A stretch of 64,000 nt of DNA from positions 64,001 through 128,000 of the IMG/VR virus record IMGVR_UViG_3300028048_000056. One strand, given 5' to 3'. Positions 1 to 25,787 of this stretch are shown here, in pieces. This DNA comes from a virus. Its lineage: Duplodnaviria > Caudoviricetes. The number at the start of each line of letters is the position of its first letter. Position 1 is the first letter of the stretch. The translations under genes were made by a program, and so were the position numbers. Under the pieces are notes generated by a model, which saw only the letters and a program-made list of their open reading frames with translations, did no database searches and was not told the DNA's origin.

Positions 1-71
1 TTGGTGTCTCTGAATAATAGTATATCTCGAGATACACTATTGATTTTATCTACCGAAAGGAGAAATCTATC

Positions 72-2333
72 ATGGTAAATGTGAACAAGAACATAGTGCC
101 AGATAAGCAGGCAGATGTTCAGTCTACGACAAAGCAGCGTCGCCCTCGCAACACAGAGCTGAATAGTTCTAAGAGTGTAACTTCTGCTATCGCCGGCGTA
201 AGTCTGGCAAATATTCGCAAGCTCAACTGTTCAAGAGAATCTGTGCTTCAGGAACTTCATCGTTGGCTTAGCGAAGATGAAGCAAAAGACTATCTTGAAG
301 CTTTCGAGAACGAGACTGGTGCTCAGGTTGTGCGTATCGCATCTCCTGAAGAGGCTGCTATGGACGGTGATTTCTGGGCTGTCAAGGACGGTAAGGAGCA
401 GCTCTGGTATCGCACAGACGGTAAGTGGTACACGAAAGACGACCTGGACGGCTCCTGTGGTGAGACAGACGCAGATTCTAGCCTCAACTGCGAAGCTGGT
501 TCCGCCAAGGTTTCTGGCACGGTAACTATCTATAATGATTTTGCCGACCTCGATAATGATACCACAGAGCGTCTGCTCAGAAGCAGAATCGAGAAAGCCG
601 TTCCTGGTGCTAAGGTTGACTTCGAGAAGGTTAACGACACTGACGTTAAGGTAAACATCGACTGCCCTGATGCTGATGCAGAGAAGGCACGCCTGGCAGT
701 AGAGTCGTCAGATGTAACTAAGTCTGTCGATTGGGAATCTGCAACCGAGGAGCTCGACTCATCTAAAGACGCTGATAAGTCGACAGAAGGCACTAATCTG
801 AATTCTTCGGCTGAACCTGAAGGAGATACTGACGGCGGTGAGTCTGTAGCTGAAGGTGTCGATGCCTCTGACATCAAGATTACCACAGAGTCCGGTAACG
901 AAGTGTCGATGCAGGATATTAAGATTGTTCAGAACCCTGACACCAATGAACTGGCAATCTTTATTCCGGAAGATGAGGACGAGACTATCCCTGAAGGATT
1001 CAGCGTAATCGGTATGGTTGTACCTGACACGCTTGGTTCTGCACCTGCCATTGAGGGCGGTGACGTTTGCCCTGAGTGTGGACAGGACCCTTGCGTATGC
1101 GAAGAAGGCAGCGAAGACGAAGGAGAACTCGACTCGTCTAGAAAAAAGAGTGAGCTGAACTGCTCCAGCAGCTCTGGGCTTCTTGAAGTCGCTACTGAGT
1201 ATTATGAGGATGAGCACGATGCACTCGTAGACATTCTTCAGTCAGTTGATAACCTCGGCTATGGTGATGCTGTTTACGAACAGCTCATAAAGAATTACGG
1301 CTATGAAGGAACCGATGCTCAGCAGGCTGACGAGGCTCTAATCAAGATGGCAAGTGAAGACGCAGATGAGCATGACTTTCTGGTTAGCCTTATTCAGGCC
1401 ATCGAAGACCTCGGCTACGGTAAGCAGGTATACACAGACGTGCTCGGAATCGGCGGAGACATTAACAGCTCAGTAAACAGCTCACTCGGTGGTGGTGACG
1501 ACAGACAGGACGCTACAAGTCAGGTAACCGTACCTAAGAGCTTTCCTGATGATAAGGTTCATGACCTGTACAGATGGGTAGAAAACGAACTGCTGCACGA
1601 AGGCATCGACGTTGATGTTTACGGCGTAAGCAGACCGTCAGCCAGCACAATCAGCTTTGAATTCGAGGTAACCGGCAGAGACCCGTCCGAGGTTGATGCT
1701 ATCATCGAAGACCGTGTTAAAGAGTTCATCGCTAACGGTAACAACGCAATCCAGTATCCAGAAGGTGACCCTCGCCACGAGTTGAACAGTGATAAGCAGG
1801 AGAAAAATCTGAACTGTACTGTCGAGAACGCTCGCGTTGAGCCTACCGAGCAAGGCACCTGGGTTGTTAAGGCAGATACAGACCGATTTGGAAAGGATGC
1901 TATTCTGTATGAGCATTACTCTGAGGAAGGCGCGAACAAATATCTGGACCGCTTGAAGGCAGGCGGTGATGCTGTAGCTAACGGCTACGATGGTCACATT
2001 GACCCCAAGAAGGTCGACCTCGATTCTGGAGACGGCACGGCAGAAGCTAAGCTGGATAAGGCGTCCATTTCCAAAGCAATGGCTAAAGTCCTTCTTGAGG
2101 ATAAAGATACACCGCTTGTCTTTATCAAGCTGAAAGACGGAGCCCAAGCATACCTTCAGCCTGCAGGCTACGAAGACAATCAGCTGGTTGCAGACGGAAA
2201 CTTTGATGAGGCTAAAGTCTATGTCGCAATGTACGACAAGAACTACAAACCCATCATGGTGAACGACCGAGAGGATAACAAGATGAGTGGTGCTGAGGTC
2301 GTCGACTACATCAAGCGTAATCTCGGTATGTAA
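72..2333 (+). CDS. Large acidic modular protein; putative prohead scaffold/internal-head polyprotein
   Basis: 753 aa, D/E-rich, RBS GAAAGGAG; about 12 [LIV]-[ND]-[SC] motifs separating small domains; internal duplication (EHDALVDILQSVDNLGYG / EHDFLVSLIQAIEDLGYG); CPECGQDPCVC motif. Confidence 0.55.
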   Translation: MVNVNKNIVPDKQADVQSTTKQRRPRNTELNSSKSVTSAIAGVSLANIRKLNCSRESVLQELHRWLSEDEAKDYLEAFENETGAQVVRIASPEEAAMDGDFWAVKDGKEQLWYRTDGKWYTKDDLDGSCGETDADSSLNCEAGSAKVSGTVTIYNDFADLDNDTTERLLRSRIEKAVPGAKVDFEKVNDTDVKVNIDCPDADAEKARLAVESSDVTKSVDWESATEELDSSKDADKSTEGTNLNSSAEPEGDTDGGESVAEGVDASDIKITTESGNEVSMQDIKIVQNPDTNELAIFIPEDEDETIPEGFSVIGMVVPDTLGSAPAIEGGDVCPECGQDPCVCEEGSEDEGELDSSRKKSELNCSSSSGLLEVATEYYEDEHDALVDILQSVDNLGYGDAVYEQLIKNYGYEGTDAQQADEALIKMASEDADEHDFLVSLIQAIEDLGYGKQVYTDVLGIGGDINSSVNSSLGGGDDRQDATSQVTVPKSFPDDKVHDLYRWVENELLHEGIDVDVYGVSRPSASTISFEFEVTGRDPSEVDAIIEDRVKEFIANGNNAIQYPEGDPRHELNSDKQEKNLNCTVENARVEPTEQGTWVVKADTDRFGKDAILYEHYSEEGANKYLDRLKAGGDAVANGYDGHIDPKKVDLDSGDGTAEAKLDKASISKAMAKVLLEDKDTPLVFIKLKDGAQAYLQPAGYEDNQLVADGNFDEAKVYVAMYDKNYKPIMVNDREDNKMSGAEVVDYIKRNLGM

Positions 2334-2350: not shown

Positions 2351-2680
2351 ATGCTACGTATTCCAATCAAGGGTGATAGGTCTCTGAACTCCACCTTCGA
2401 GAATCATGAACACTCTGAAAAGTCTAAAGAAAAGATTTCTGAAGGAACTCTTGAGTATCATGTTCAGAGGCTTGAAGACGGTGTGGTAAAGGAAACCTAC
2501 CACGATATGTGGGATGCTGTCGAGTGGGTTAAAAACCACAGAAAAACTCGTGCTAAAGACGAGAGCATCTATAAAAGAATTCAGTTCGCTGTCTACGGTT
2601 GCGACGGTACCAAGTCGGCATACGGTTACGAGTGGAAACTTGACCAGATACCTGGTAAGGACCTTAAGGAGGAAGACTGA
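2351..2680 (+). CDS. NUMOD3/NUMOD1-like DNA-binding protein without nuclease domain
   Basis: HEHSEKSKEKISEG (NUMOD3-like) and KSAYGYEWK (NUMOD1/HTH-like); RBS AGGAGGT; N-terminal SLNS motif. Confidence 0.55.
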   Translation: MLRIPIKGDRSLNSTFENHEHSEKSKEKISEGTLEYHVQRLEDGVVKETYHDMWDAVEWVKNHRKTRAKDESIYKRIQFAVYGCDGTKSAYGYEWKLDQIPGKDLKEED

Positions 2681-3375
2681 TGCAGCCGCTGATGCGGAAT
2701 TCACTTCAGAAGGATAAGATACGGACTAAACTAAGGTGGATGAGCCGAGAAAGGTTCTCCACCTTAACCCCGTATGAGAAATACCGTCGACATATTCTGA
2801 GTGTCAGAAATGAAGTATATCGGCAACGATTTCTTGGAATCACCGACCTAAGCCATCAATACGACATCTCTAAATGGGATTTCAGTAATGAGCCCGACAT
2901 TCCCTCTCGTCTGGGTTGTAAGAATGAGCATTGGAAGATGTACAAGGACGCTGATAAAGAAGCGATGCGGCGTATAACTAATCGACCGATAGGACGGTAT
3001 ACACCGTGGGGTAATCTAAGGCAGATATATCCGACATTCGAAGCAGCCGCAGAATGGGTGTTGTGGTATTTCCAAGACCACATATCTGATGTTCAAGGAG
3101 CACGCCCTCCTAAGAGTAAAGAAAGAATTGAGCGTAGAATACGACAATGTTGCTTACATTGGATGGACGTAGCGCCTGATGACCAGTTTGCTTTTGATTA
3201 TTTCTGGGAAGATGAAATATATAATATGGGTAACATACCGTCGGTAGCTCGCCCATATGATTTTGTCTGGAAGTACCTGACATTTGAGGAAGCAACCACT
3301 ATCAATTACGGTGACCTAGAGTCACTTGACTATACAGGAAGTAGGGGGCGAGATTGTGCTAAGACTAAACTGTAG
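2680..3375 (+). CDS. Hypothetical protein with NUMOD1-like DNA-binding segment
   Basis: RPIGRYTPWGNLRQIYPTFEAAAEWV...IRQCC...YDFVWKY; TGATG coupling to previous gene. Confidence 0.45.
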   Translation: MQPLMRNSLQKDKIRTKLRWMSRERFSTLTPYEKYRRHILSVRNEVYRQRFLGITDLSHQYDISKWDFSNEPDIPSRLGCKNEHWKMYKDADKEAMRRITNRPIGRYTPWGNLRQIYPTFEAAAEWVLWYFQDHISDVQGARPPKSKERIERRIRQCCLHWMDVAPDDQFAFDYFWEDEIYNMGNIPSVARPYDFVWKYLTFEEATTINYGDLESLDYTGSRGRDCAKTKL

Positions 3376-3715
3376 AGCTGTTTCACAAGCTAACCCATTC
3401 ACAGATAAGCACGAAGGTGCTGAGCGAGAAAAGCAAAAGATGTGGACAGGTTTCCAGTCGTCTAATATAGACGGCATGGCCTACAAAGTTGAAAAAGAAC
3501 AGCTGTGGGTTCGTTTCAAAGATGGGTCTGTATACACCTATTTCGACGTTCCTCTAAACATTGCTAAGGGTTTATACAAAGCTGGGTCGAAAGGAAAATA
3601 CTTCTGGAAAAAGATTCGTAATAATCCTAGATATCAGTATCAAAGATTATCTGCGTCTCTCCGACATCAGCTTGACAATTATGCAGGTCTCCGAGAAGAC
3701 CTAGGAGGTGAGTGA
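3356..3715 (+). CDS. KTSC domain protein
   Basis: SSNIDGMAY...LWVRFKDGSVYTYFDVP...AGSKGKYFWKKIR matches the KTSC pattern; GTG start after GGGGG RBS. Confidence 0.8.
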   Translation: MLRLNCRAVSQANPFTDKHEGAEREKQKMWTGFQSSNIDGMAYKVEKEQLWVRFKDGSVYTYFDVPLNIAKGLYKAGSKGKYFWKKIRNNPRYQYQRLSASLRHQLDNYAGLREDLGGE

Positions 3716-4124
3716 ATTGAGGAAATTCAGAATTAACTCTGGAGCGAGTGTCATGCCTAGCAAATTTGAAAATCCAGTAGATGAGGAATTTCTCAATGAT
3801 GTTAGCAATATCATTACGCTTGAAGACGGTACTTCACTTGATTTGAGCCGAGCTCGACTATTGTATAATCCGAATACACATCAGGTGCAGCTGACAGATG
3901 CCGAAGCCAACCCCAAGGACTTCGTTCAACTTGCTACGCTCACCATTACCAAAGATAAGCCTGAGGTGAACAACGATGAGTCATTCGAGGAACCGACCGA
4001 AGAGGGAACAGAAGAAGAAGAAGCTCTCGGCGAAGGCGCGGGAGAAGCAGTTGTGCGAGATACAGGAGACGTCGATGAAGAAATGCCAGCAGATGGAGAT
4101 GATTCCGGTGAGTTCTTCCAGTGA
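3708..4124 (+). CDS. Acidic hypothetical protein (putative internal head protein)
   Basis: RBS AGGAGG; N-terminal RINSG; core resembles a module of ORF 72..2333; acidic tail. Confidence 0.6.
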   Translation: MSELRKFRINSGASVMPSKFENPVDEEFLNDVSNIITLEDGTSLDLSRARLLYNPNTHQVQLTDAEANPKDFVQLATLTITKDKPEVNNDESFEEPTEEGTEEEEALGEGAGEAVVRDTGDVDEEMPADGDDSGEFFQ

Positions 4125-9442: not shown

Positions 9443-9642
9443 TAACGAAACAGGAACGCAAGGAAGCTGAAAAGGCTGCTCGTTCGCTGTATCAAGATGT
9501 GCTGAAAGTGGAAGTAAAGGAGGACCCAGACAACGAGTCCTCCTTGCTCCTTACCATCACTCGTGGTCGAGTTATGCCAACTGTTCGCATAGATAGAAAA
9601 GCGGTGACTCCAAAACCAATATTTCCTAAGAAAGGGGAATGA
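9439..9642 (+). CDS. Small hypothetical protein
   Basis: ATGA overlaps at both ends; RBS GAGGTGG. Confidence 0.6.
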   Translation: MITKQERKEAEKAARSLYQDVLKVEVKEDPDNESSLLLTITRGRVMPTVRIDRKAVTPKPIFPKKGE

Positions 9643-10583
9643 ATATGAGTAGCACACTTAATCTGACTATGCTTTCACCTGAACGCTTCCAAGCGATATA
9701 TAATTCGTTGAATGAAGCCGAGCAGAAAACTCTTAGGACAATTCTAGAAGAGCTCGCTGAGACAGGTGAAAGTGAAACCTATGAAAAGGTGTGGCTGGAA
9801 GACTACGAAGAAATTCCAGTCGACATCGATACTTTTCTAGAAGACCCTAGATATCTAGGAAACGCAACCAATAACGGTACTCAGATATATCCATTCTGGC
9901 GTGAACAGCTACGAAAGATATTTGCAAGCGGAGATACCGATTATGACGAGATTGCATTCACCGGTGCTATTGGAATTGGCAAGACCCAAATTGCGGTGTA
10001 TGCGATTGCATATCTAACGTATAGGCTGCTGTGCTTGAGGCATCCTCAACGGTATTTTGGATTTGCGGATACCGACGAGATTGCCATATTCTTCTTCAAC
10101 GCTACTGTCGCACTGGCACAGGCTGTCGGATATGGTAGACTGCACAACTGCTTAATGGAATCCCCTTGGTTCTTAGACCATGGTTCTATTCACGGCTCAC
10201 AAGACAACCCGTACTATGTACCTGGAAAACACATTGCGATTAAAGCCGGTTCTAAAGCAAGTCACGGATTAGGTCAGCAAATATTCTGCCTTGTTGGTTC
10301 GACTCTGATTGACACTGACCAAGGAGTCCTGCCTTTATCAGAATTGGAAGGTAAGACTGTATCGGTACTTCAAAGGAACGAACAAGGTCATCTTTCTTGG
10401 GTAAAAGCGCCAGTGTTAAAAACCAAGTATGCTACTAAAACTATCAGAATAACTCTCGAAAATGGTGAGACTATAGAAGGTACTCCTGAACATCGAGTAA
10501 TGCTGGTAGATGGTACCTATAAAGCATTAGGTGATTTAACCGAAGACGACGAATTAATGGATTTCGAGGTGGACCATGCGTAA
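9639..10583 (+). CDS. terL: Terminase large subunit N-fragment fused to split intein N-half
   Basis: Walker A FTGAIGIGKT; IYPFW adenine-binding region; ends with intein N-domain and TAA. Confidence 0.9.
   Translation: MNMSSTLNLTMLSPERFQAIYNSLNEAEQKTLRTILEELAETGESETYEKVWLEDYEEIPVDIDTFLEDPRYLGNATNNGTQIYPFWREQLRKIFASGDTDYDEIAFTGAIGIGKTQIAVYAIAYLTYRLLCLRHPQRYFGFADTDEIAIFFFNATVALAQAVGYGRLHNCLMESPWFLDHGSIHGSQDNPYYVPGKHIAIKAGSKASHGLGQQIFCLVGSTLIDTDQGVLPLSELEGKTVSVLQRNEQGHLSWVKAPVLKTKYATKTIRITLENGETIEGTPEHRVMLVDGTYKALGDLTEDDELMDFEVDHA
10287..10580 (+). mobile_element. Split intein N-fragment (IntN, 98 aa)
   Basis: Block A CLVGSTLI, block B GTPEHRVM, acidic end LTEDDELMDFE, then stop. Confidence 0.9.
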
Positions 10584-11462
10584 ATATCATATATACCGAC
10601 ACACAACACCTGACGGTAAGGTTTATATAGGTTGTACATGCCAGAATCCTGAAGCTCGTTGGGGTAGGGGCGGCGAAAACTACCAATCCAATAAAGAGTT
10701 CTGGTGTGCAATTCAAAAATATGGGTGGGATAATGTCAAGCATGAAATTCTCAGAGTAGAACTTGATAGACAAACCGCCTTAGCTTTAGAATATGAATAC
10801 ATTCATCAGCACAAAGCTACTAACCCTGATTATGGTTATAATCACATATCCGGACCTAAATATCGCATGGATTTACATGAGCAATTTAGAAAGCAATATC
10901 CGAAAGGTCTAAAGGATATTGGACTAATCCTGAATATCGCGCTTTAATTTCTAGACGAGTAAGCGAAGCAAGGAAAGGAATTAGATTTACCAACGAGCAC
11001 CGTGAACATCTGCGTCAATCTAAACTTAAGATTAATCAGATAAAAGGCAATCAATGCTGGATTTACAAAGGCCATCAAGAGTCTTTAATACCAGAATCTG
11101 AGTTGAGTAGATACCTAAGTGATGGCTGGGTTTCAGGTCGACTTAATGATAAGAACATCTATATGCACAAGCAGGGTTGTATGGACATTAAAGTCACTGA
11201 GGAGGAAGTCGAGGATTATACCAAACAAGGTTGGGTATTAGGCAGAGGAGATGAGGTAAGTAAGAATATATCTAAATCACGACGAAATTTTGTGTGGAAG
11301 TACCGTGAGTTAGAGTTTGAAAGTAGCACTGACCTTACCGAGTATCTAAAGCAACACGGTTATCCTAAAATCGCGATGTCAACCGTAACCGGCTTAGCCA
11401 GAGGTGGTAAGTACACCACCTATCAAGAGCTGATGGGAACTATAAGCAAAATAAGAAAATAA
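10576..11462 (+). mobile_element. Free-standing GIY-YIG homing endonuclease, frameshifted near 10890-10893
   Basis: YHIY...KVYIGCT, NPDYGYN; -1 frame from 10890 reads AISERSKGYWTNPEYR...NEHREHLRQSK and joins ORF 11103..11462 (YLSDGWVSGR repeats). Confidence 0.8.
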
Positions 11463-11499
11463 TATAAAATCTAGAAATAAGGAAGGGAGGGGTCACACT

Positions 11500-11625
11500 G
11501 TGAAAATTACTCGAATTGAGCACATTAATCATGAGGAGCCGATAGCTGTTTATGATGTAATAGACGCTAAGCCAAATCATAATTTCTGTGTACGAGTTGG
11601 AAAACATCGTATAATTTCGCACAAT
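11500..11625 (+). mobile_element. Split intein C-fragment (IntC, 42 aa; not in ORF track)
   Basis: RBS AAGGAAGGGAGG, GTG start; MKITRIEHINHEEPIAVYDVIDAKPNHNFCVRVGKHRIISHN then +1 Cys. Confidence 0.9.
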
Positions 11626-12931
11626 TGTGGTTTCCTTTGACGAGGTGAACTTCGCACCTGGTGCGAATACCACCATGGAGAAGTCTAAGATTATGCAGAC
11701 TTACTCTTCTGTCAAAGCCAGAATCAAATCACGTTTCATTCGAAACGGAAAACTTTTGGGTAAGATGTTCTTGGTTTCTTCCAAGAAGGCACAAGACGAC
11801 TTCCTAGAAGTTTACCTAGATAAACGTAGAAAAGAGGACGACGCTGCCAGACTGTTTATCGTCGACGAACCGTTGTGGGTTGTAAAGCCGTCAGATACCT
11901 ATTGTGGTAAGAAGTTCCTTGTTGCTTACGGTTCAAAGCAACTTACTCCTCGAGTGATAGAACCCGGTGAAGACCTTGAAGCCATCAAGAAGCTCGGTTA
12001 TGAGATATTAGAAGTGCCTATCGAACTGGAGTCAGACTTCCGTTTCAATATTATTACCGCACTGCAAGACTTAGCAGGTAAGGCACTTCCCGGCACAACC
12101 AGCTACTTCAGTTACAAGATTATCAGCTCATGCTACACAGACAGACCTAGCCCCTTTACGGCTGAGGTACTTGAGATTGGTCTGAACGACCACATGGAAT
12201 ACCAGGAATTCTTTAACCTAGATGTTATTCCAAAAGAATATTTCTCTCGCCCGATGGCAATACATCTGGATACTTCATTAAAGAATGATATTACAGGTAT
12301 TTCAGGAGCCTGCTATGTAGACAATGTTCTAGCAGACACTGATGACGGTACGATTGAGAAACGTGTCTACGCTCAGGTATTCTCTGTCGGTATTAAGGCA
12401 CCGCCTGGTTCTGAAATCAGCATGGCGAAGAATCGACGGTTTATCTACTGGCTACGCAGCGTAGGTTTCAACATTGCTATAATCAGTACTGATACCTTCC
12501 AGACAGCAGAGTCACATCAGATACTGCGGGATAAGGGATTCACGACTGCCATTCGTTCTCTTGACCGAACTCCTGAAGGATATCAGACACTCCGTGAAGC
12601 TATGGTCGAGAAACGAATTAGCATGATAAGACACGCAAAGCTAGAGAATGAGCTAATCTATCTACAGCGTGACACGAGCACCGGAAAGCTAGACCACCCA
12701 GCTAATGGTTCAAAAGATATTTCAGATAGTTTAGCAGGTGCAATCTGGGATTTGAGCTTACTACCATATTCACCTGCATTGCACAACTTCGTCATGTATT
12801 CTCACGAAAAAGAAGACGTCATGCCGGCTTCTATCAACGCGATGTTCGGTGGCTTACAACCCTACGACAAGTATCAGTTCGAGAGAAGCCCAGAAGATAT
12901 CAGAATTATCCAGGAAATATCGCATTTGTAA
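11500..12931 (+). CDS. terL: IntC plus terminase large subunit C-fragment (needs +1 shift at 11635-11641)
   Basis: After a +1 shift reads CGFLDEVNF (Walker B); nuclease motifs IHLDTSLKND and SKDISDSLAG. Confidence 0.85.
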
Positions 12932-13203: not shown

Positions 13204-14784
13204 TTGCCGTTATTCAAACGAAAGAAAAAGCAGGTTGTGCAGAACAATGCTATCCCTGCCAACCAGGTTAAGAAGCGAACTGATGTCTATGACATCGACT
13301 ATCGTGTACTTGCCGGTGCTCTAACCGACCTTGACCAGATTAAGCAGTCAACTACCGCTCTGAAGGACAGAGCAACCATGTACAATGCGATGACTCAGCT
13401 TAAATCTGATGCTATCATAGGTCCTGCAATCGAAATCTACGCTACCAATGCGACAGGCACGAATGCAGACGGAAATGTTATCTGGGCAATTCCGGTAAAT
13501 GACGATGAAGTCTCGATATTAGCTGCAAAAGCCGCTAATGAAAGAATGAGAGTTTGGAAGCTGAATTGGCGTGCTTACAGCCATATGATTGAGCTGGTTA
13601 CCTACTCTAATCTGTACCTAAAGACAACCGAGTTTGTAACTCCGAGAGCAAAGGAGCAGAATCAGGGTATACTTAGCTTAAATCAGCGAAATCCTAATGC
13701 TCATTGGGATGTTCGTACGGATGTTGCTATAAATCCTGCAATCATCTACGAGCTACGTCATGACGACGAACCTTCTGCTTTCTGTGTCGATTTCTCGCTT
13801 CAGGACAATATGACTGCGACCTCATATGACAGCTGGTGCAAAATCAAAGGAAGACCTTGGTCGGTTCAGTCCAGCGATTCTGTAATCCACATTGTCTACA
13901 ACCTGTCGTTGTATCCGTCTGAAATCGAGGTAGAAGACGCTGAAGGTGTCACTCCATACACCATATACCAAGGAGACCCACTGTTCGTAGATGCGTATGT
14001 ACCAGCACAGATTTTGTCTTTGCTGGAAGATGCTATTGTTGCCAACAGAGTTACCAAGTCTGCGTTAATCAGGATTCTTCAGCTTGAAGTAGGTGACTGC
14101 TCACCTGAAGAGGAGTTCAGATTACTCGACCAACTCAAAAGACAAATGGAGCATAAGCTAGCAGCAAATACCACTTCTGGTACAGCTTCTTCTTACGCTG
14201 ACCCAGGTCCGCTTGAAAAGATTGTCTACACGGTTACTCGTGATGGTAAGGGTGTAATCAATCTAGAAACTCTAGGCGGCGATGTAAACATCCGTGACAT
14301 TGTTGACCTTGACTGGTATAAGCAGAAGATTACATCGATTACAGACGTTTCTCCTGGTAATCTTGGTCAATCAACAGATGAAGAAGGAACTGGTGGAGCT
14401 ACTATCTTGACCCAGAACAACATCAGGTTGTATCGTAAGATAATCGGACTTCAGCATGCCTACAGCGAGGGTATTCGTGAAGCTATAAATACCTACTTCC
14501 GAAAGAATGACCTCGAGCAGTATTGCGACCGATTTGAGGTAAAGATGCAACCACCTGTAGGTCCTGAGGACGAAACCAAATCTGAATTGTCATCTAATGC
14601 GGTTAGCCGTGCTAACGACATTATCGCACTCCTTGAAAACCTTGGCGTTAAGGATTCTAAGATTAAGGTGAGGGCTGTCAAGGGACAACTTGACGTTATC
14701 GACCCTGATATCTATCGTATCTTGAACAAGGCAGACTTTACAGAAGCTACCGAGCCGCAGACAGAAGAAAATCCCTTCGTGTAA
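13204..14784 (+). CDS. Portal protein (T4 gp20-like)
   Basis: LSLLEDAIVANRVTKS..RI, INLETLGG, DIVDLDWY; position after terL; TTG start with AAAGGAGGT. Confidence 0.85.
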   Translation: MPLFKRKKKQVVQNNAIPANQVKKRTDVYDIDYRVLAGALTDLDQIKQSTTALKDRATMYNAMTQLKSDAIIGPAIEIYATNATGTNADGNVIWAIPVNDDEVSILAAKAANERMRVWKLNWRAYSHMIELVTYSNLYLKTTEFVTPRAKEQNQGILSLNQRNPNAHWDVRTDVAINPAIIYELRHDDEPSAFCVDFSLQDNMTATSYDSWCKIKGRPWSVQSSDSVIHIVYNLSLYPSEIEVEDAEGVTPYTIYQGDPLFVDAYVPAQILSLLEDAIVANRVTKSALIRILQLEVGDCSPEEEFRLLDQLKRQMEHKLAANTTSGTASSYADPGPLEKIVYTVTRDGKGVINLETLGGDVNIRDIVDLDWYKQKITSITDVSPGNLGQSTDEEGTGGATILTQNNIRLYRKIIGLQHAYSEGIREAINTYFRKNDLEQYCDRFEVKMQPPVGPEDETKSELSSNAVSRANDIIALLENLGVKDSKIKVRAVKGQLDVIDPDIYRILNKADFTEATEPQTEENPFV

Positions 14785-14872
14785 CGAATAGCAAGGGCAA
14801 TCCTGACAACACTCTATATAATAGAAGGAATAGACGACAAGCGGGATTGTCTATTTAAGCGAGGTGAGTAAG

Positions 14873-15475
14873 ATGGCAACAGAAATGACGCAGGATAGTA
14901 AAACCGGTAGGTTTATCGTAGCAGGCGACTTTCTCGATATCGGTATTCCGAATCAAGATGGTTTAACCTTTTCTCGAGAGACTATCGAATGGCTAATGAA
15001 CGACCCGACATTCAAGGATTGTCTGGCTCGTCATGTATATCCTGCATACATTGAGCATCCGTCAGACAACACACCAGGCTTCCGCGGAACTGAAGCAGGT
15101 TTCCTAATCGACTGCCACATCGAGGGAGACAAGCTGAAAGGTGCAATCGAGCTTCTCGATACCACTAAGGAAGGTCAGTACATCAGAGACTTGTACAGAC
15201 ACGAGATTAAACCGGGTGTCAGCATTCGAGCTAACGGATGTACCGACACTGGCGGATATCCTGGCAAAACAACAGGTCCGATTGACTTCTTCGGATTTGA
15301 CTTTGTGGCGCAACCAGCGTTCAAATATGCGGTTCCTATTCCGCTCGCAGCTTCAAGGCGAAACCTCATTCAGAACACTTTAAGGCTTTCGGACACCAGC
15401 CGTCAACTGGCAGCTCTGAGAAAGAGTGCTCTGTCTGAGTTGTTATACAATTCGCATTTCAAAAACTTTAGCTAA
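14873..15475 (+). CDS. Prohead protease (T4 gp21-like)
   Basis: YIEHP, GVSIRANG, FDFVAQPAF catalytic motifs; lies between portal and capsid. Confidence 0.85.
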   Translation: MATEMTQDSKTGRFIVAGDFLDIGIPNQDGLTFSRETIEWLMNDPTFKDCLARHVYPAYIEHPSDNTPGFRGTEAGFLIDCHIEGDKLKGAIELLDTTKEGQYIRDLYRHEIKPGVSIRANGCTDTGGYPGKTTGPIDFFGFDFVAQPAFKYAVPIPLAASRRNLIQNTLRLSDTSRQLAALRKSALSELLYNSHFKNFS

Positions 15476-15489
15476 AGGAGATTGATACT

Positions 15490-16860
15490 ATGCTTAAGCC
15501 TTACACAAATGCAGGCAAGTCTGGCATTCAGAGCCTGAACTCCAGCCGTGCCGCAAAAGGACTGTCACAGTATGATGCTATCGGGCTTTCTAAGGCTCAG
15601 AAGATTCTCAATAGCGCATACGCACTGCAGAAGAGAGCTTTGAACTCAAGCCTTCTTCCTACTTCTATCATTCCATCTGCAACTCAGCCAGGTGACGTTC
15701 TCCAGAAGACCACATACATGAATGTTCTTCGTGCAACACTCGTGGATTGGCTCATTCCTGAGTTCTGTACAATGCAGCCTATGGCTTCTCGTCACACCTC
15801 AATTCCTTACACTCTCTTCCACTTCGGTGAAGATAAGGGTACTGTAAAGGCTGGTCAGGTGTTCGCAAGCCCCTTCGAGCTCGCAAGAGGTGAAGAGAAC
15901 TACTCTGGCAGTGATGTCAACAACGAGCCTCTCACAGACCTCTACCTCCGTGCTCCTGTTATTCCTACCACTGTTCGTATCGTTCCTCAGAGCGGCTCTA
16001 CAATCTTTGATGATGGCGAGGGCAAGCTCCAGACTCTGAACGGTGCTACTGTTACAGATGTCGGCACTATTGATTACGCAACTGGCGTTATCACAGGCGT
16101 TACTGCAGCAGCTACAACTCTCGCTTCTTACAGAGTTGACAACATTTCAGCTTCTGCTAATACACCTCCTATCTACAGTGAGCTCGCTTGGCTCGACCTT
16201 GTTGCAGAGGACAACACTCTCGCAGCGCGTTGGTCACAGGCAGCTGCTTACGATATGGAACAGCAGTATGGTCTTGACGGTCCTAAGATGCTCGAGGAGC
16301 AGGCTACATCTGTAATCGTAAATGAGCTCAATACCAAGGTTGCTCATGATATGTGGGCTAACGCAGGAGCAGGTCAGCCTGTTGTATGGAGCGCTACACC
16401 CCCTATCGGACAAGGCCAGGCAGGTGACCTTGCACACGACAACTCTTTCATCAGAGCTATCAACGCAGGTTCACAGAGAATCTACGACGCAACAGGTCGT
16501 ATTCGTCCTAACTTCATGCTCGTTGGTTCCAGCGTCATGACTGTTATCCAGGGTATGACTCAGTTCACTCCTGCTAACACTCAGAAGACAACTGGTTCTT
16601 ACTATGCAGGTACTCTCGGCGATAAGAAGGTATACTGCTTCAGAGGTGGTATTCCTCATGACCAGTACGTTCTCGGTCACGTTTCCAGCAACGATGTCGA
16701 GCCTTCTTATGTATTCGGCACATATATGCCTGTTACAGCAACAGCTGCTCTTATGGATGCTACATTCACAGGTCAGCAGGGCTTCGCAACATCGAACGCT
16801 CTGAAGATGGTGAATCCGAAGGCATTCATCCGTGGCGTTGTTACTAACCTGGTATACTAA
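15490..16860 (+). CDS. Major capsid protein (T4 gp23-like)
   Basis: CTMQPM, LAARWSQAAAYDMEQQYGLD, VFGTYMPV, QQGFATS; highly biased codons; three LNS motifs in the N-terminal 53 aa. Confidence 0.9.
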   Translation: MLKPYTNAGKSGIQSLNSSRAAKGLSQYDAIGLSKAQKILNSAYALQKRALNSSLLPTSIIPSATQPGDVLQKTTYMNVLRATLVDWLIPEFCTMQPMASRHTSIPYTLFHFGEDKGTVKAGQVFASPFELARGEENYSGSDVNNEPLTDLYLRAPVIPTTVRIVPQSGSTIFDDGEGKLQTLNGATVTDVGTIDYATGVITGVTAAATTLASYRVDNISASANTPPIYSELAWLDLVAEDNTLAARWSQAAAYDMEQQYGLDGPKMLEEQATSVIVNELNTKVAHDMWANAGAGQPVVWSATPPIGQGQAGDLAHDNSFIRAINAGSQRIYDATGRIRPNFMLVGSSVMTVIQGMTQFTPANTQKTTGSYYAGTLGDKKVYCFRGGIPHDQYVLGHVSSNDVEPSYVFGTYMPVTATAALMDATFTGQQGFATSNALKMVNPKAFIRGVVTNLVY

Positions 16861-18153: not shown

Positions 18154-18465
18154 ATGGCTAAGGATGCTAAAAGAAAGCTTCTCAAGCTCGACAGCTCCAA
18201 GAAGAAAGAAAACCTGAATTCTTCTAAGGAATTCGAGGGTACCGTATATTACAGCCTTGAGGATGTCGAGATTATCACTCAGGCAATTCTCGCAGAGCTC
18301 TCGTCTGACCCGTCTATCGGCGTTACAATCACTCCTTCAGACACAGGTGTTGTTCTCAACTGCGTGCCTGAGAACGGTGACGAGTATACCGTTGATGTTG
18401 ACTTGAATACCGAGACTCTCGCTGAGGACGCAGCTGCTGAAGGCGGCGAGCCTGCAGTAGAGTAA
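18154..18465 (+). CDS. Small acidic protein with LDSS/LNSS leader
   Basis: RBS AGGAGGT; MAKDAKRKLLKLDSSKKKENLNSS. Confidence 0.65.
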   Translation: MAKDAKRKLLKLDSSKKKENLNSSKEFEGTVYYSLEDVEIITQAILAELSSDPSIGVTITPSDTGVVLNCVPENGDEYTVDVDLNTETLAEDAAAEGGEPAVE

Positions 18466-23879: not shown

Positions 23880-25787
23880 ATGAATGTATTCATTTCAGAA
23901 ATGCTCAAGACAATGGGTATTGCAGCAGACAGCCAGAAGCTCAACTGCTGCAAAGCCCAGGGCACAATTATCGACGACTCAAAGGTAGGATTCAGCTTAA
24001 CGCTGCCTGATGGCACTACTGTCGAGGTATACACACCAAAGGAAGACAGCTGTGCGACAGAAGAAGGATTTGCGTACATCCCCGAATGTGACGCAGAAAG
24101 CCCTGATATGTGTGCTGAAGACCTCGGTACCTGGGTAGGAGACTGCCTCGACTGCTCCAGACGTATCGATGCCTATTATGAGTCTATTCGAGGCAGAAGC
24201 ACAGAACTCAATTCGGCTCTTGAGCCAGACACAGCACGTCGTATCAAAGACGTGTTCAGAGCTGCACAGTCAGCAGTTGACCTGCCGCCTGGATTCCGCT
24301 ACACCGCATTCCGTGAGAACAAAGATGCAGACCTCATCTTGTCTACATTGATGTATACATCACAGAAGGTCGGTACTCAGTGGGTAGCTAAATCTTCACT
24401 TGCTCTCGATGTAGGTGCAGGTGCTGATGAGAGTGGCAGTGATGACTGGACATTCGAGCCAAACTACAATCCTGATTCTGAAGCTCATCTCATTTACCAC
24501 AGAGCAGGTCGATTCATCGATGTTGAGCGCGGCGCATACGGTGATACCGTTACCGGTGATACAGCTGAGAAGAGGGACAAGCAGGCAGCCTATTGGCTTG
24601 CCGGACTGTTGTCTGACATGGTCGACAGTATGCTTCAGAATCCGCCAGCTCGTTGCTACGAGTTCTTCCTTGCAGATGGCATTGCCGAGCTCAAGAAGTC
24701 AGACCTTGACCGTATGAGCACACCTGGTATTATGCGTCTGGTAACCAAGGGTTATATCAAGGCAGAGGACGTTCTAAAGGCAAAGCCGGCACTCGCAAAA
24801 GACCTGGTTCAGAAGAAGCTGATTACACCTGAAATCGTGGCACGTCGTGTTCCCGAGCGTCTCCTCTGGCTTGTTCAGGCTGGTTACATCAGCCCTGACT
24901 ATGCAGTCAAGGTTGACCCCACTATCAAGGATAAGCTGGTTAAGAAGGGCCTGTACACGATTGCTGATAACCTTCCTGATGACCCTTCTGCAATCTTGGA
25001 AGGTGTCAAGGCTGGTGAAATTCCGCCTACAGATGCTTACAGAAAGAATCCTAAGCTACTTCAGCCTATGGTCGAACAGAAACTCATCACACCGCAGGAA
25101 GCCTACAAGCTCGATGCGTCTATTGTTACATGGTTATTGCTCAATCACTTTATCGGCAGAGAAGAAGCCACGAAAGTAAAGCCCGACATTCAGAAGTACA
25201 TCGCAAGAAAGTATAAGGATGTCAACTGGGAAGAGCTGGACGCTTCTTGTAGCGACGGCGAAACCTTGAATTCAGGCGACGGTGGGCAGTTCAAAGACAA
25301 GCTAAAGAAGCTCAGAGAAGCATTTGCTAAACGCCAGAAGTCTGCCAAGAAGGCAGAGGAGGGTATCGACGCTGCTAATGAGGCAATCCTCAACAAGACA
25401 GCTAAGCTCCGCGAAGCAGCAGGTTTGAACAGCTCGATGGGCTTCAACAGCAATATGATAGGCGACGGCGATAACGTAGGCGAGCCACTTTCAAGCTCCG
25501 AAACACCTCATGTATTCGAGGAAGGAGACTTCAGCCAGTATGCACCTGGCTATGAGCCGCTTGCTACTACAACCGCTGAAGGACCTGGATTCATTGCTGA
25601 GGTTATGTTACCGGAAGACAATTTTGACGGGATTGTCGTACCCGGTGATTCTGCAGATATCGCAAAGGAAACTCTTACTCAGATGCTTCTGGCAAACGAC
25701 GGAACCTTCATCGACTGGAAGCCTGTAGATGACATTCAGACATTCAAGACTGAGAATGCTGACAAGAACATTCTCGTTCTTAACTAA
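23880..25787 (+). CDS. Modular protein with ~23-aa helical repeats and multiple LNS/LDC motifs
   Basis: Repeats LVTKGYIKAEDV/LVQKKLITPE/LVQAGYISPD; motifs KLNCC, LDCS, ELNSA, LDAS, TLNSG, GLNSS. Confidence 0.6.
   Translation: MNVFISEMLKTMGIAADSQKLNCCKAQGTIIDDSKVGFSLTLPDGTTVEVYTPKEDSCATEEGFAYIPECDAESPDMCAEDLGTWVGDCLDCSRRIDAYYESIRGRSTELNSALEPDTARRIKDVFRAAQSAVDLPPGFRYTAFRENKDADLILSTLMYTSQKVGTQWVAKSSLALDVGAGADESGSDDWTFEPNYNPDSEAHLIYHRAGRFIDVERGAYGDTVTGDTAEKRDKQAAYWLAGLLSDMVDSMLQNPPARCYEFFLADGIAELKKSDLDRMSTPGIMRLVTKGYIKAEDVLKAKPALAKDLVQKKLITPEIVARRVPERLLWLVQAGYISPDYAVKVDPTIKDKLVKKGLYTIADNLPDDPSAILEGVKAGEIPPTDAYRKNPKLLQPMVEQKLITPQEAYKLDASIVTWLLLNHFIGREEATKVKPDIQKYIARKYKDVNWEELDASCSDGETLNSGDGGQFKDKLKKLREAFAKRQKSAKKAEEGIDAANEAILNKTAKLREAAGLNSSMGFNSNMIGDGDNVGEPLSSSETPHVFEEGDFSQYAPGYEPLATTTAEGPGFIAEVMLPEDNFDGIVVPGDSADIAKETLTQMLLANDGTFIDWKPVDDIQTFKTENADKNILVLN

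Follow-up and report, generated by a model that had tools for sequence, protein, structure and literature searches.

What role could a tailed phage have for a single 753-residue protein in which one short motif recurs a dozen times between small folded blocks? The question is raised by open reading frame (ORF) 72..2333 of a 64,000-nucleotide stretch of Caudoviricetes DNA, here called the window, which comprises bases 64001-128000 of IMG/VR record IMGVR_UViG_3300028048_000056 (162,085 bp; estimated completeness 93%). An initial annotation of this DNA, made from its letters alone, had described the product, P0001, as a chain of small modules between cleavage motifs and as a scaffold or core polyprotein that releases several internal proteins. 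The reading that we favor, with a probability of roughly 0.65, is that P0001 is a head-core polyprotein of a T4-type phage that would be cut at these motifs by the phage's own head protease of the gp21/assemblin fold. Drawn from sequence comparison and structural modeling, the polyprotein reading is a prediction, and a well-supported one.

A motif in the linkers of a modular protein

The motif L-[N/D]-[S/C] begins at residues 30, 51, 138, 228, 243, 353, 362, 571, 580, and 650 of P0001, and variants with Ile or Val in the first position begin at residues 464 and 468, giving 12 sites in total. The 10 copies of the Leu form compare with an expectation of 0.77 (13-fold), and 0 of 20,000 shuffles gave 10. 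Codon choice varies among the copies, indicating that the motif exists at the level of the protein, and a DNA-level repeat was ruled out on the same ground. A thirteenth match to [LIV][ND][SC], the I-D-C at residue 196, lies inside a strand with Pro as the next residue and is probably not a site.

An AlphaFold2 model of the polyprotein built from 60 homologues (mean predicted local distance difference test score, pLDDT, of 67.9) contains seven folded units, at residues 54-126, 144-222, 265-319 (with a knuckle at 333-343), 368-459, 478-555, 583-631, and 654-753. Stretches with pLDDT below 50 cover residues 1-53, 127-143, 224-264, 320-367, 460-475, 574-580, and 632-653. The initial annotation had placed about 12 motifs in linkers between compact blocks and had proposed domain parsing by AlphaFold as a check. 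In the model, all 12 sites are located in, or at the edge of, the stretches below 50 and outside the folded domains, and the motif accounts for 10 of the 13 linker leucines. The blocks that had been named from the sequence also proved to be real, namely the two alpha/beta units (residues 144-222 and 478-555), the helical duplication (368-459), and the four-Cys knuckle (333-343). Sites and modules are arranged along the gene as follows.

72..2333, + strand: coding sequence of the acidic polyprotein P0001 (ATG start; 753 residues, 82 kDa, isoelectric point [pI] 4.2, net charge -89; 76 + 92 metagenomic homologues)
72..230, + strand: basic N-terminal leader, residues 1-53, with sites at 30-32 and 51-53 (pLDDT below 50; pI about 10)
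231..449, + strand: folded module 1, residues 54-126, alpha+beta, family F (AlphaFold2, module clustering)
483..491, + strand: site at residues 138-140 (L-N-C), in linker 127-143
501..737, + strand: folded module 2, residues 144-222, ferredoxin-like beta-alpha-beta-beta-alpha-beta, family I (AlphaFold2)
753..806, + strand: double site at residues 228-230 (L-D-S) and 243-245 (L-N-S), with a 15-residue spacer
864..1100, + strand: module A, core at residues 265-319 (small beta domain) and four-Cys knuckle at 333-343
1128..1163, + strand: double site at residues 353-355 (L-D-S) and 362-364 (L-N-C), with a 9-residue basic spacer
1173..1448, + strand: folded module 4, residues 368-459, tandem three-helix duplication (helices 369-408 and 416-458)
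1461..1481, + strand: double variant site at residues 464-466 (I-N-S) and 468-470 (V-N-S)
1503..1736, + strand: folded module 5, residues 478-555, ferredoxin-like
1782..1817, + strand: double site at residues 571-573 (L-N-S) and 580-582 (L-N-C), with a 9-residue spacer
1818..1964, + strand: folded module 6, residues 583-631, three strands and a helix, family D
2019..2027, + strand: site at residues 650-652 (L-D-S)
2031..2330, + strand: folded module 7, residues 654-753, alpha/beta, family G

Homologues were collected by a word-indexed search (76 proteins) and by an exhaustive HMMER search (92 proteins), and all of them are metagenomic. Each of the 76 close homologues carries between 5 and 13 motifs where fewer than 1.2 would be expected, and the distant set (74 examined) is mostly alike, with up to 15. 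When the proteins were split at the motifs and the resulting segments clustered, approximately 25 module families recurred. The leader and module A are found almost throughout, and the other modules vary in their presence from protein to protein. Module A is common to nearly all family members, distant ones included, and the most distant homologues align only at residues ~250-330; apart from this module, no part of the family is conserved as strongly as the leader. Among 60 homologues, the invariant residues are M1, V2, V4, R23, R24, and L30-N-S-S33 in the leader and T272-E277, Q287, P289, and T291-E293 in module A, while L353-S356 is kept in at least 90%. The leader is a candidate capsid-targeting propeptide. 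At the other end of the protein, module 7 is swapped in relatives for a module of family N or L, or is absent, and its own family G also occurs in relatives (P0138, P0149) of a 635-residue protein described below. Family D, represented here by module 6, is found elsewhere as stand-alone proteins of 59-93 residues (P0145, P0147, P0148).

This segmentation presupposes the motif, and two unforced tests were added. Internal ends of BLASTP alignments to P0001 lie a median of 8 residues from a site, compared to 21 for random positions. When the coding sequence was compared by blastn with four relatives, homology blocks ended at residues 230, 364, and 467-471 and started at residue 248, all of which are at sites: homology to locus L008 stops at residue 230, that to L005 begins at residue 248, and that to L004 stops exactly at residue 364. 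In L005 and L007, an extra module is inserted at the double site at residues 464-470. A comparison of module gain and loss had been proposed along with the original claim of modules strung between cleavage motifs; the changes do occur at the motifs, and comparative and structural evidence together support the modular chain, with cleavage as its predicted part.

The degree of variability is also informative. The major capsid protein (MCP) is 92-99% identical in five complete or near-complete relatives, while their polyproteins are 32-73% identical over the best segments and differ in their module sets. Variability of this kind is in keeping with accessory cargo that experiences diversifying pressure, and the internal-protein loci of T-even phages offer a parallel (PMC3012670). 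Module A is found alone as well, preceded by a short leader with the motif at its end. One block of the polyprotein had been reported to resemble the product of the separate gene at 3708..4124, and this held in part: the pairwise similarity to module A is weak (E 0.009 over 33 residues), but a broadened module-A profile, run against 233 ORFs, matches that product with an E value of 2e-4, which lends the likeness moderate support. Module hidden Markov models made from close relatives found no match among the other ORFs of this genome. The basic spacers between double sites look like the leaders of once-separate genes, which suggests that the chain grew by gene fusion.

The motif in head genes and its reading as a cleavage code

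Genome-wide, the four-residue form of the motif is concentrated in the polyprotein, the first 53 residues of the MCP, a 103-residue head protein, and a 635-residue protein. The genes that bear on the reading of the motif are listed here.

within 2351..4124, + strand: small genes 3' of the polyprotein gene, each with one motif near the N-terminus (2351..2680, at residue 12; 3326..3715, at residue 14; 3708..4124, at residue 9)
13204..14784: portal (Portal_T4, Pfam)
14864..15475, + strand: prohead protease, 203 residues (phrog_207, E 1e-10)
15490..16860, + strand: gp23-like MCP (Pfam Gp23, E 7e-23)
18154..18465, + strand: 103-residue protein of the head module, two motifs within residues 1-24
23880..25787: 635-residue acidic protein, after the tail tube gene, with 6-7 motif copies

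Copies of the motif in the MCP are at residues 16-18, 40-42, and 51-53 (nucleotides 15535..15543, 15607..15615, and 15640..15648), and none occurs later in the protein. In an alignment of 57 MCP homologues, those down to 70% identity retain two N-terminal sites, in which the third residue is Ser or Ala, and at 70-75% identity the form is L-N-A followed by Ser. The invariant part of the MCP begins directly after the last site, and the preceding part is variable in both sequence and length, a conservation pattern that would be expected of a propeptide boundary. For comparison, gp23 of T4 loses 65 residues (PMC9026906). There is no Glu among the first 53 residues, the predicted propeptide of the MCP, and a Glu-specific cut is therefore impossible there.

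The model of the protease (pLDDT 77.6) gave T4 gp21 as its best Foldseek match (5JBL, E 3e-6, template modeling score 0.65), followed by herpesvirus proteases with E values of about 0.04-0.1. His65, His113, and Ser120 are invariant in the protease alignment. Residues 161-165 form a conserved L-A-A-S-R (nucleotides 15344..15358) in a disordered linker, residues 151-175, that precedes the C-terminal helix. The L-A-A-S, with Ala at both P2 and P1, is a plausible candidate for a site of self-cleavage and self-release, and a self-release site has been described for gp245 of SPN3US (PMC10052503).

The small genes carry the motif close to their starts, 6-14 residues in for those beginning at 2351, 3326, 3708, and also 6245. 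Their leaders drift among relatives while the site is retained, and in this they mirror the capsid-targeting sequences of the T4 internal proteins (PMC9026906, PMC3012670). The gene at 3326..3715 encodes a KTSC-domain protein (Pfam E 1.7e-18) whose leader ends in L-N-C. In relatives, the KTSC ORF opens just three residues before the Leu of the motif, and the true start of the gene here is therefore probably an internal GTG or TTG near 3356. The sites of the 103-residue protein are likewise retained in relatives despite differing leader sequences. The 635-residue protein found no match in family searches; it may belong to the head and be processed as well, or it may be a tail protein resembling a tape measure. 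With respect to Ser versus Ala at the third position of the motif, in cargo and capsid proteins, one contig has both. A search of the loci with P0131 gave no match.

Given that the motif is shared by the MCP propeptide, the leaders of small genes, and the linker of the protease itself, it is most likely the cutting signal of the head protease. A site logo made from 354 distinct family sites has Glu or Lys favored at P4, Leu at P3, Asn (68%) or Asp (32%) at P2, and Ser (74%) or Cys (26%) at P1, where Ala appears in more distant members and in capsid proteins; P1' is Ser in 65% of the sites, and Lys or Arg is favored at P2'. With the conserved Leu placed at P3, the scissile bond would most likely follow the small residue and precede Ser. 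In the other possible register, the cut could come after the Asn or Asp, keeping an acidic or amide residue at P1 as in T4. The L-[N/D]-[S/C/A] motif has no Glu and differs from an L/I-x-E signal with cleavage after Glu, while the characterized gp21-type phage proteases of T4, phiKZ, and SPN3US all cleave after Glu (PMC9026906, PMC10052503).

The maturation and release sites of herpesvirus assemblins have the consensus (V/L/I)-x-Ala followed by Ser. Judged against that consensus, the phage code looks like an assemblin code, with a hydrophobic residue at P3, a small residue at P1 (Ser, Cys, or Ala here), and Ser at P1'. In contrast, the protease itself resembles T4 gp21 (E 3e-6) more than it does the assemblins (E about 0.04-0.1).

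A proposed pathway and competing explanations

We propose that the basic leader, possibly together with module A, would carry the polyprotein into the assembling prohead, where the protease (14864..15475) would cut at the 12 L/I/V-[N/D]-[S/C] sites. The predicted products are two basic leader peptides, four spacer peptides of 4-15 residues, and seven acidic folded proteins of 7.7-11.5 kDa, whose pI values range from 4.05 to 4.76. The leader and module A would constitute the fixed part and the other modules swappable accessory cargo, which would probably remain in the head and, like the internal proteins of T4, pass into the host along with the DNA. For the fate of the pieces, retention and ejection as cargo is our tentative choice at somewhat below even odds; expulsion as core material, which is not exclusive of the former, is possible at lower odds.

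Searches for the function of the modules were largely negative. The polyprotein had no match in Pfam, PHROGs, or NCBIfam, nor did tblastn or megablast find one among 50,697 phage records, and there was no sequence homology to T4 internal proteins, gp22, gp67, or gp68 in Pfam, PHROG, NCBIfam, or tblastn comparisons. Foldseek comparison of the whole model with the PDB returned nothing at E <= 0.001, and the BFVD search yielded two alignments that were long but of poor quality, together with a weak hit to a T4-like Ip7 protein (E 0.067) that we do not trust. A wide search with VIA found generic ferredoxin-like chains only, for residues 144-222 (Z ~9) and 477-558. These searches with the whole model produced no informative fold, and they barely covered the five modules other than the two ferredoxin-like ones. 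An ESM Atlas search on module A gave scores of at most 0.77 and no family. The possibility of anti-defense factors among the modules had been raised in the initial annotation, and such a role is a guess.

A number of points weigh against the favored reading. We infer both the cleavage and the presence in the virion from sequence, and every member of the family is metagenomic. Late timing of the gene is an assumption; it lies 11 kb 5' of the portal gene, behind nucleotide-metabolism genes and with a -10-like box of its own. None of the modules has a recognizable function in the family and fold searches. Strongly acidic modules suit a scaffold or core that is expelled before packaging better than they suit proteins packed with DNA. 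The linkers are rich in Asn, Asp, and Ser in any case, so that the enrichment of the motif is not fully independent of composition, and alignments tend to stop in poorly conserved linkers, so that the evidence from breakpoints is not fully independent of it either. Finally, the 635-residue motif carrier could be a tail protein, which would fit a head-only protease poorly.

The acidity of the modules bears most directly on the alternative that P0001 is chiefly a scaffolding or core protein, a stand-in for T4 gp22, whose acidic pieces are expelled before or during packaging and not delivered. The polyprotein is indeed very acidic with many sites, as is gp22 of T4 (PMC9026906), its gene was found, in conserved gene order, in each of the relatives examined, and the near-universal leader and module A could point in the same direction. 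The protease is without a long scaffold-like extension, unlike that of Listeria phage LIS04. The earlier statement that no scaffold gene lies between the protease and MCP genes was correct and favors the same alternative, but those genes are not beside the ORF; the portal, protease, and MCP genes are ~11-13 kb 3' of it. A gene 11 kb from the head genes is an awkward place for a scaffold, seven small globular domains are unlike the known extended helical scaffolds, and it is hard to reconcile a shape-determining scaffold with module content that changes freely while the MCPs are 92-99% identical. The 103-residue protein (18154..18465) and the 635-residue protein (23880..25787) are other scaffold candidates. 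The polyprotein thus neither adjoins the protease or MCP gene, nor is extended and helical, nor tracks the conservation of the MCP, and we consider a purely scaffolding protein unlikely; the leader and module A may still have a core role.

Two further explanations dispense with cutting by the head protease. P0001 could be an uncut multidomain protein, akin to beads on a string, with the motif as a docking or modification signal, such as a sequon or a binding site for the capsid interior. Docking sites are a frequent role of short linear motifs in disordered linkers, and several copies fit Asn-x-Ser/Thr, some of them Glu-x-Asn-x-Ser. This is difficult to square with the replacement of Asn by Asp at 32% of the sites, with a residue after next that is not always Ser or Thr, and with a motif that stands exactly where T4-type MCPs lose their propeptide and in the linker of the protease itself. 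Moreover, many small proteins that are unrelated to one another begin with a leader of 3-30 residues that has the motif at its end, as would be expected of targeting peptides that are cleaved off, and we judge an uncut protein to be very improbable. A sequon for N-glycosylation specifically was ruled out by the Asp that takes the place of Asn at a third of the sites. Just as improbable, in our estimate, is cutting by another enzyme of host or phage outside the capsid, in which case an early or middle polyprotein would release effectors inside the cell. The gene does follow those for ligase, dUTPase, and homing endonuclease and has its own -10-like element, and the placement of the polyprotein in the virion is one that we infer. 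However, the MCP propeptide and further proteins of the head module carry this motif too, the region searched showed no second protease, and the gene opens a mostly + strand block that runs into the terminase, portal, protease, and MCP genes.

The T4 substrates of gp21, among them core and internal proteins, are cleaved at a motif of three residues, and their propeptides serve as capsid-targeting sequences (PMC9026906, PMC3012670). The system of head-core polyprotein and protease proposed here resembles that of T4 (gp22, gp67, gp68, IPI-III, and Alt as substrates of gp21) in its gp20-like portal, gp21-fold protease, and gp23-like MCP, in a motif with Leu at P3 that is present in the MCP propeptide, in the leaders of small proteins, and in many copies in an acidic core protein, and in a hypervariable cargo set comparable to the T-even internal-protein loci. 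Membership among substrates of T4-type proteases (gp21, MEROPS S77) is consistent with a gp21-fold protease gene beside a gp23-like MCP gene and with a motif shared with the MCP propeptide. The differences from T4 are the lack of Glu at P1, the concatenation of cargo in one 753-residue chain, and the position of the gene outside the head block. In the giant phages phiKZ, 201phi2-1, and SPN3US, a gp21-related protease cuts many internal head proteins, some at several sites (PMC10052503, PMC5694885), and Ser is preferred at P1' in SPN3US, as here (PMC10052503); in contrast, the motifs of these giant phages end in Glu, and cleavage mainly trims off long N-terminal propeptides instead of parting a row of folded modules.

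Polyvalent proteins offer another comparison. They are long products of late genes with swappable, unrelated domains, and have been proposed to accompany the DNA on delivery and to be processed into separate units (Iyer et al. 2017, PMC5512222). P0001 shares with them many unrelated domains and a variable architecture. Their signature domains (MuF, zincin-like MPTase, ART, ParB-like) were not detected, family searches of the polyprotein gave no match to their signature conflict domains or to an embedded MPTase peptidase, and in P0001 the capsid protease, acting at linker motifs, would do the processing in place of such a peptidase. A different solution at the same position of the head module is found in LIS04, of the SP-15 type, in which a 559-residue protease-scaffold fusion (L003 16200..17879) has 350 C-terminal residues that are helical and scaffold-like, and its protease has no L-N/D-S/C motifs.

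Head proteins processed by a T4-type protease are known; what would be new here is the non-Glu, assemblin-like code together with a concatenated cargo that shuffles. If cleavage at these sites is true, gp21-type head proteases are not all specific for Glu and one lineage has an assemblin-like code, which would bear on the common origin of phage and herpesvirus capsid proteases. A leader followed by L-N/D-S/C/A and then Ser would then be a rule for listing capsid cargo across an uncultured phage group, and about 25 orphan module families, now without context, would fall under capsid cargo. A polyprotein that is cut apart and shuffles its cassettes would also extend the principle of the T4 internal proteins, and would suggest a design, taken from nature, for a capsid that is to be loaded with several foreign proteins.

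The A-run junction and the gene neighborhood

The 9-residue spacer that follows module A is encoded in part by an A-run, and its essential feature is the following.

1142..1148, + strand: A_AAA_AAG heptamer in the -1 slippery phase, inside the 9-residue spacer

An A-run with A_AAA_AAG is at the matching place in every one of loci L004-L010. In fused genes, the -1 frame encodes a single Glu before it stops at TGA. In record G004 (L010), it is the zero frame that ends two codons on, and the -1 frame runs into a 546-residue "second gene" and restores a degenerate copy of the motif (L010 11110..11175). Thirteen family members terminate within four residues of the junction, and some short members naturally end in a similar basic tail. 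A pattern search for further junctions of the split type found the G004 record only. Of the features of a dnaX-type -1 frameshift, the in-phase heptamer and a nearby -1 stop are present; a stimulatory stem-loop was not found, and the predicted folding of the 72 nucleotides 3' of the heptamer is no better than that of shuffled sequences (z +1.25). The A-run may reflect programmed frameshifting, transcript slippage, or a hotspot of fission and fusion. A more far-reaching scheme would combine these elements: a phage with no dedicated scaffold gene would build its core from a hypervariable polyprotein anchored by the leader and module A, with a gp21-fold protease whose specificity has shifted from Glu to a small residue, an assemblin-like code that converged or was retained, injected modules for counter-defense or takeover, and a slippery site that sets the ratio of short to long products. 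We regard this scheme as a whole as quite doubtful.

The window contains a T4-type set of head genes, consisting of the portal, the gp21-fold protease, and the gp23-like MCP, and genes for an adaptor-like protein, sheath, and tube are all 3' of the MCP gene. The nearest cultured relatives by MCP, at ~30% identity, are SP-15-type myophages of Bacillus, Listeria, and Streptococcus. The genes 5' of ORF 72..2333 encode an NAD-ligase, a DUF1653 protein, a dUTPase, and a GIY-YIG endonuclease, and the ORF heads a gene run, nearly all on the + strand, that reaches the terminase and head genes. A Shine-Dalgarno-like AAAGGAG precedes it at 56..62.

An extended -10-like element, TGTATAAT, was observed 5' of the polyprotein gene (L002 13970..14040, corresponding to window positions -30..40). 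It is without the AACTTCG word typical of the early promoters of this phage, and two perfect hairpins follow it in the 5' leader of the gene.

The gene for the large terminase appears to be interrupted (9639..12931). The ORF at 9639..10583 has a terminase-like N-terminal part and a weak match to intein splicing (E 4.5e-6, under the Pfam cut-off), a homing endonuclease of the GIY-YIG type is encoded at 10576..10947 within the terminase region, and 11627..12931 may be the remainder of the terminase. The terminase ORF of relatives (L010, L004) has the same N-terminus and extends much further.

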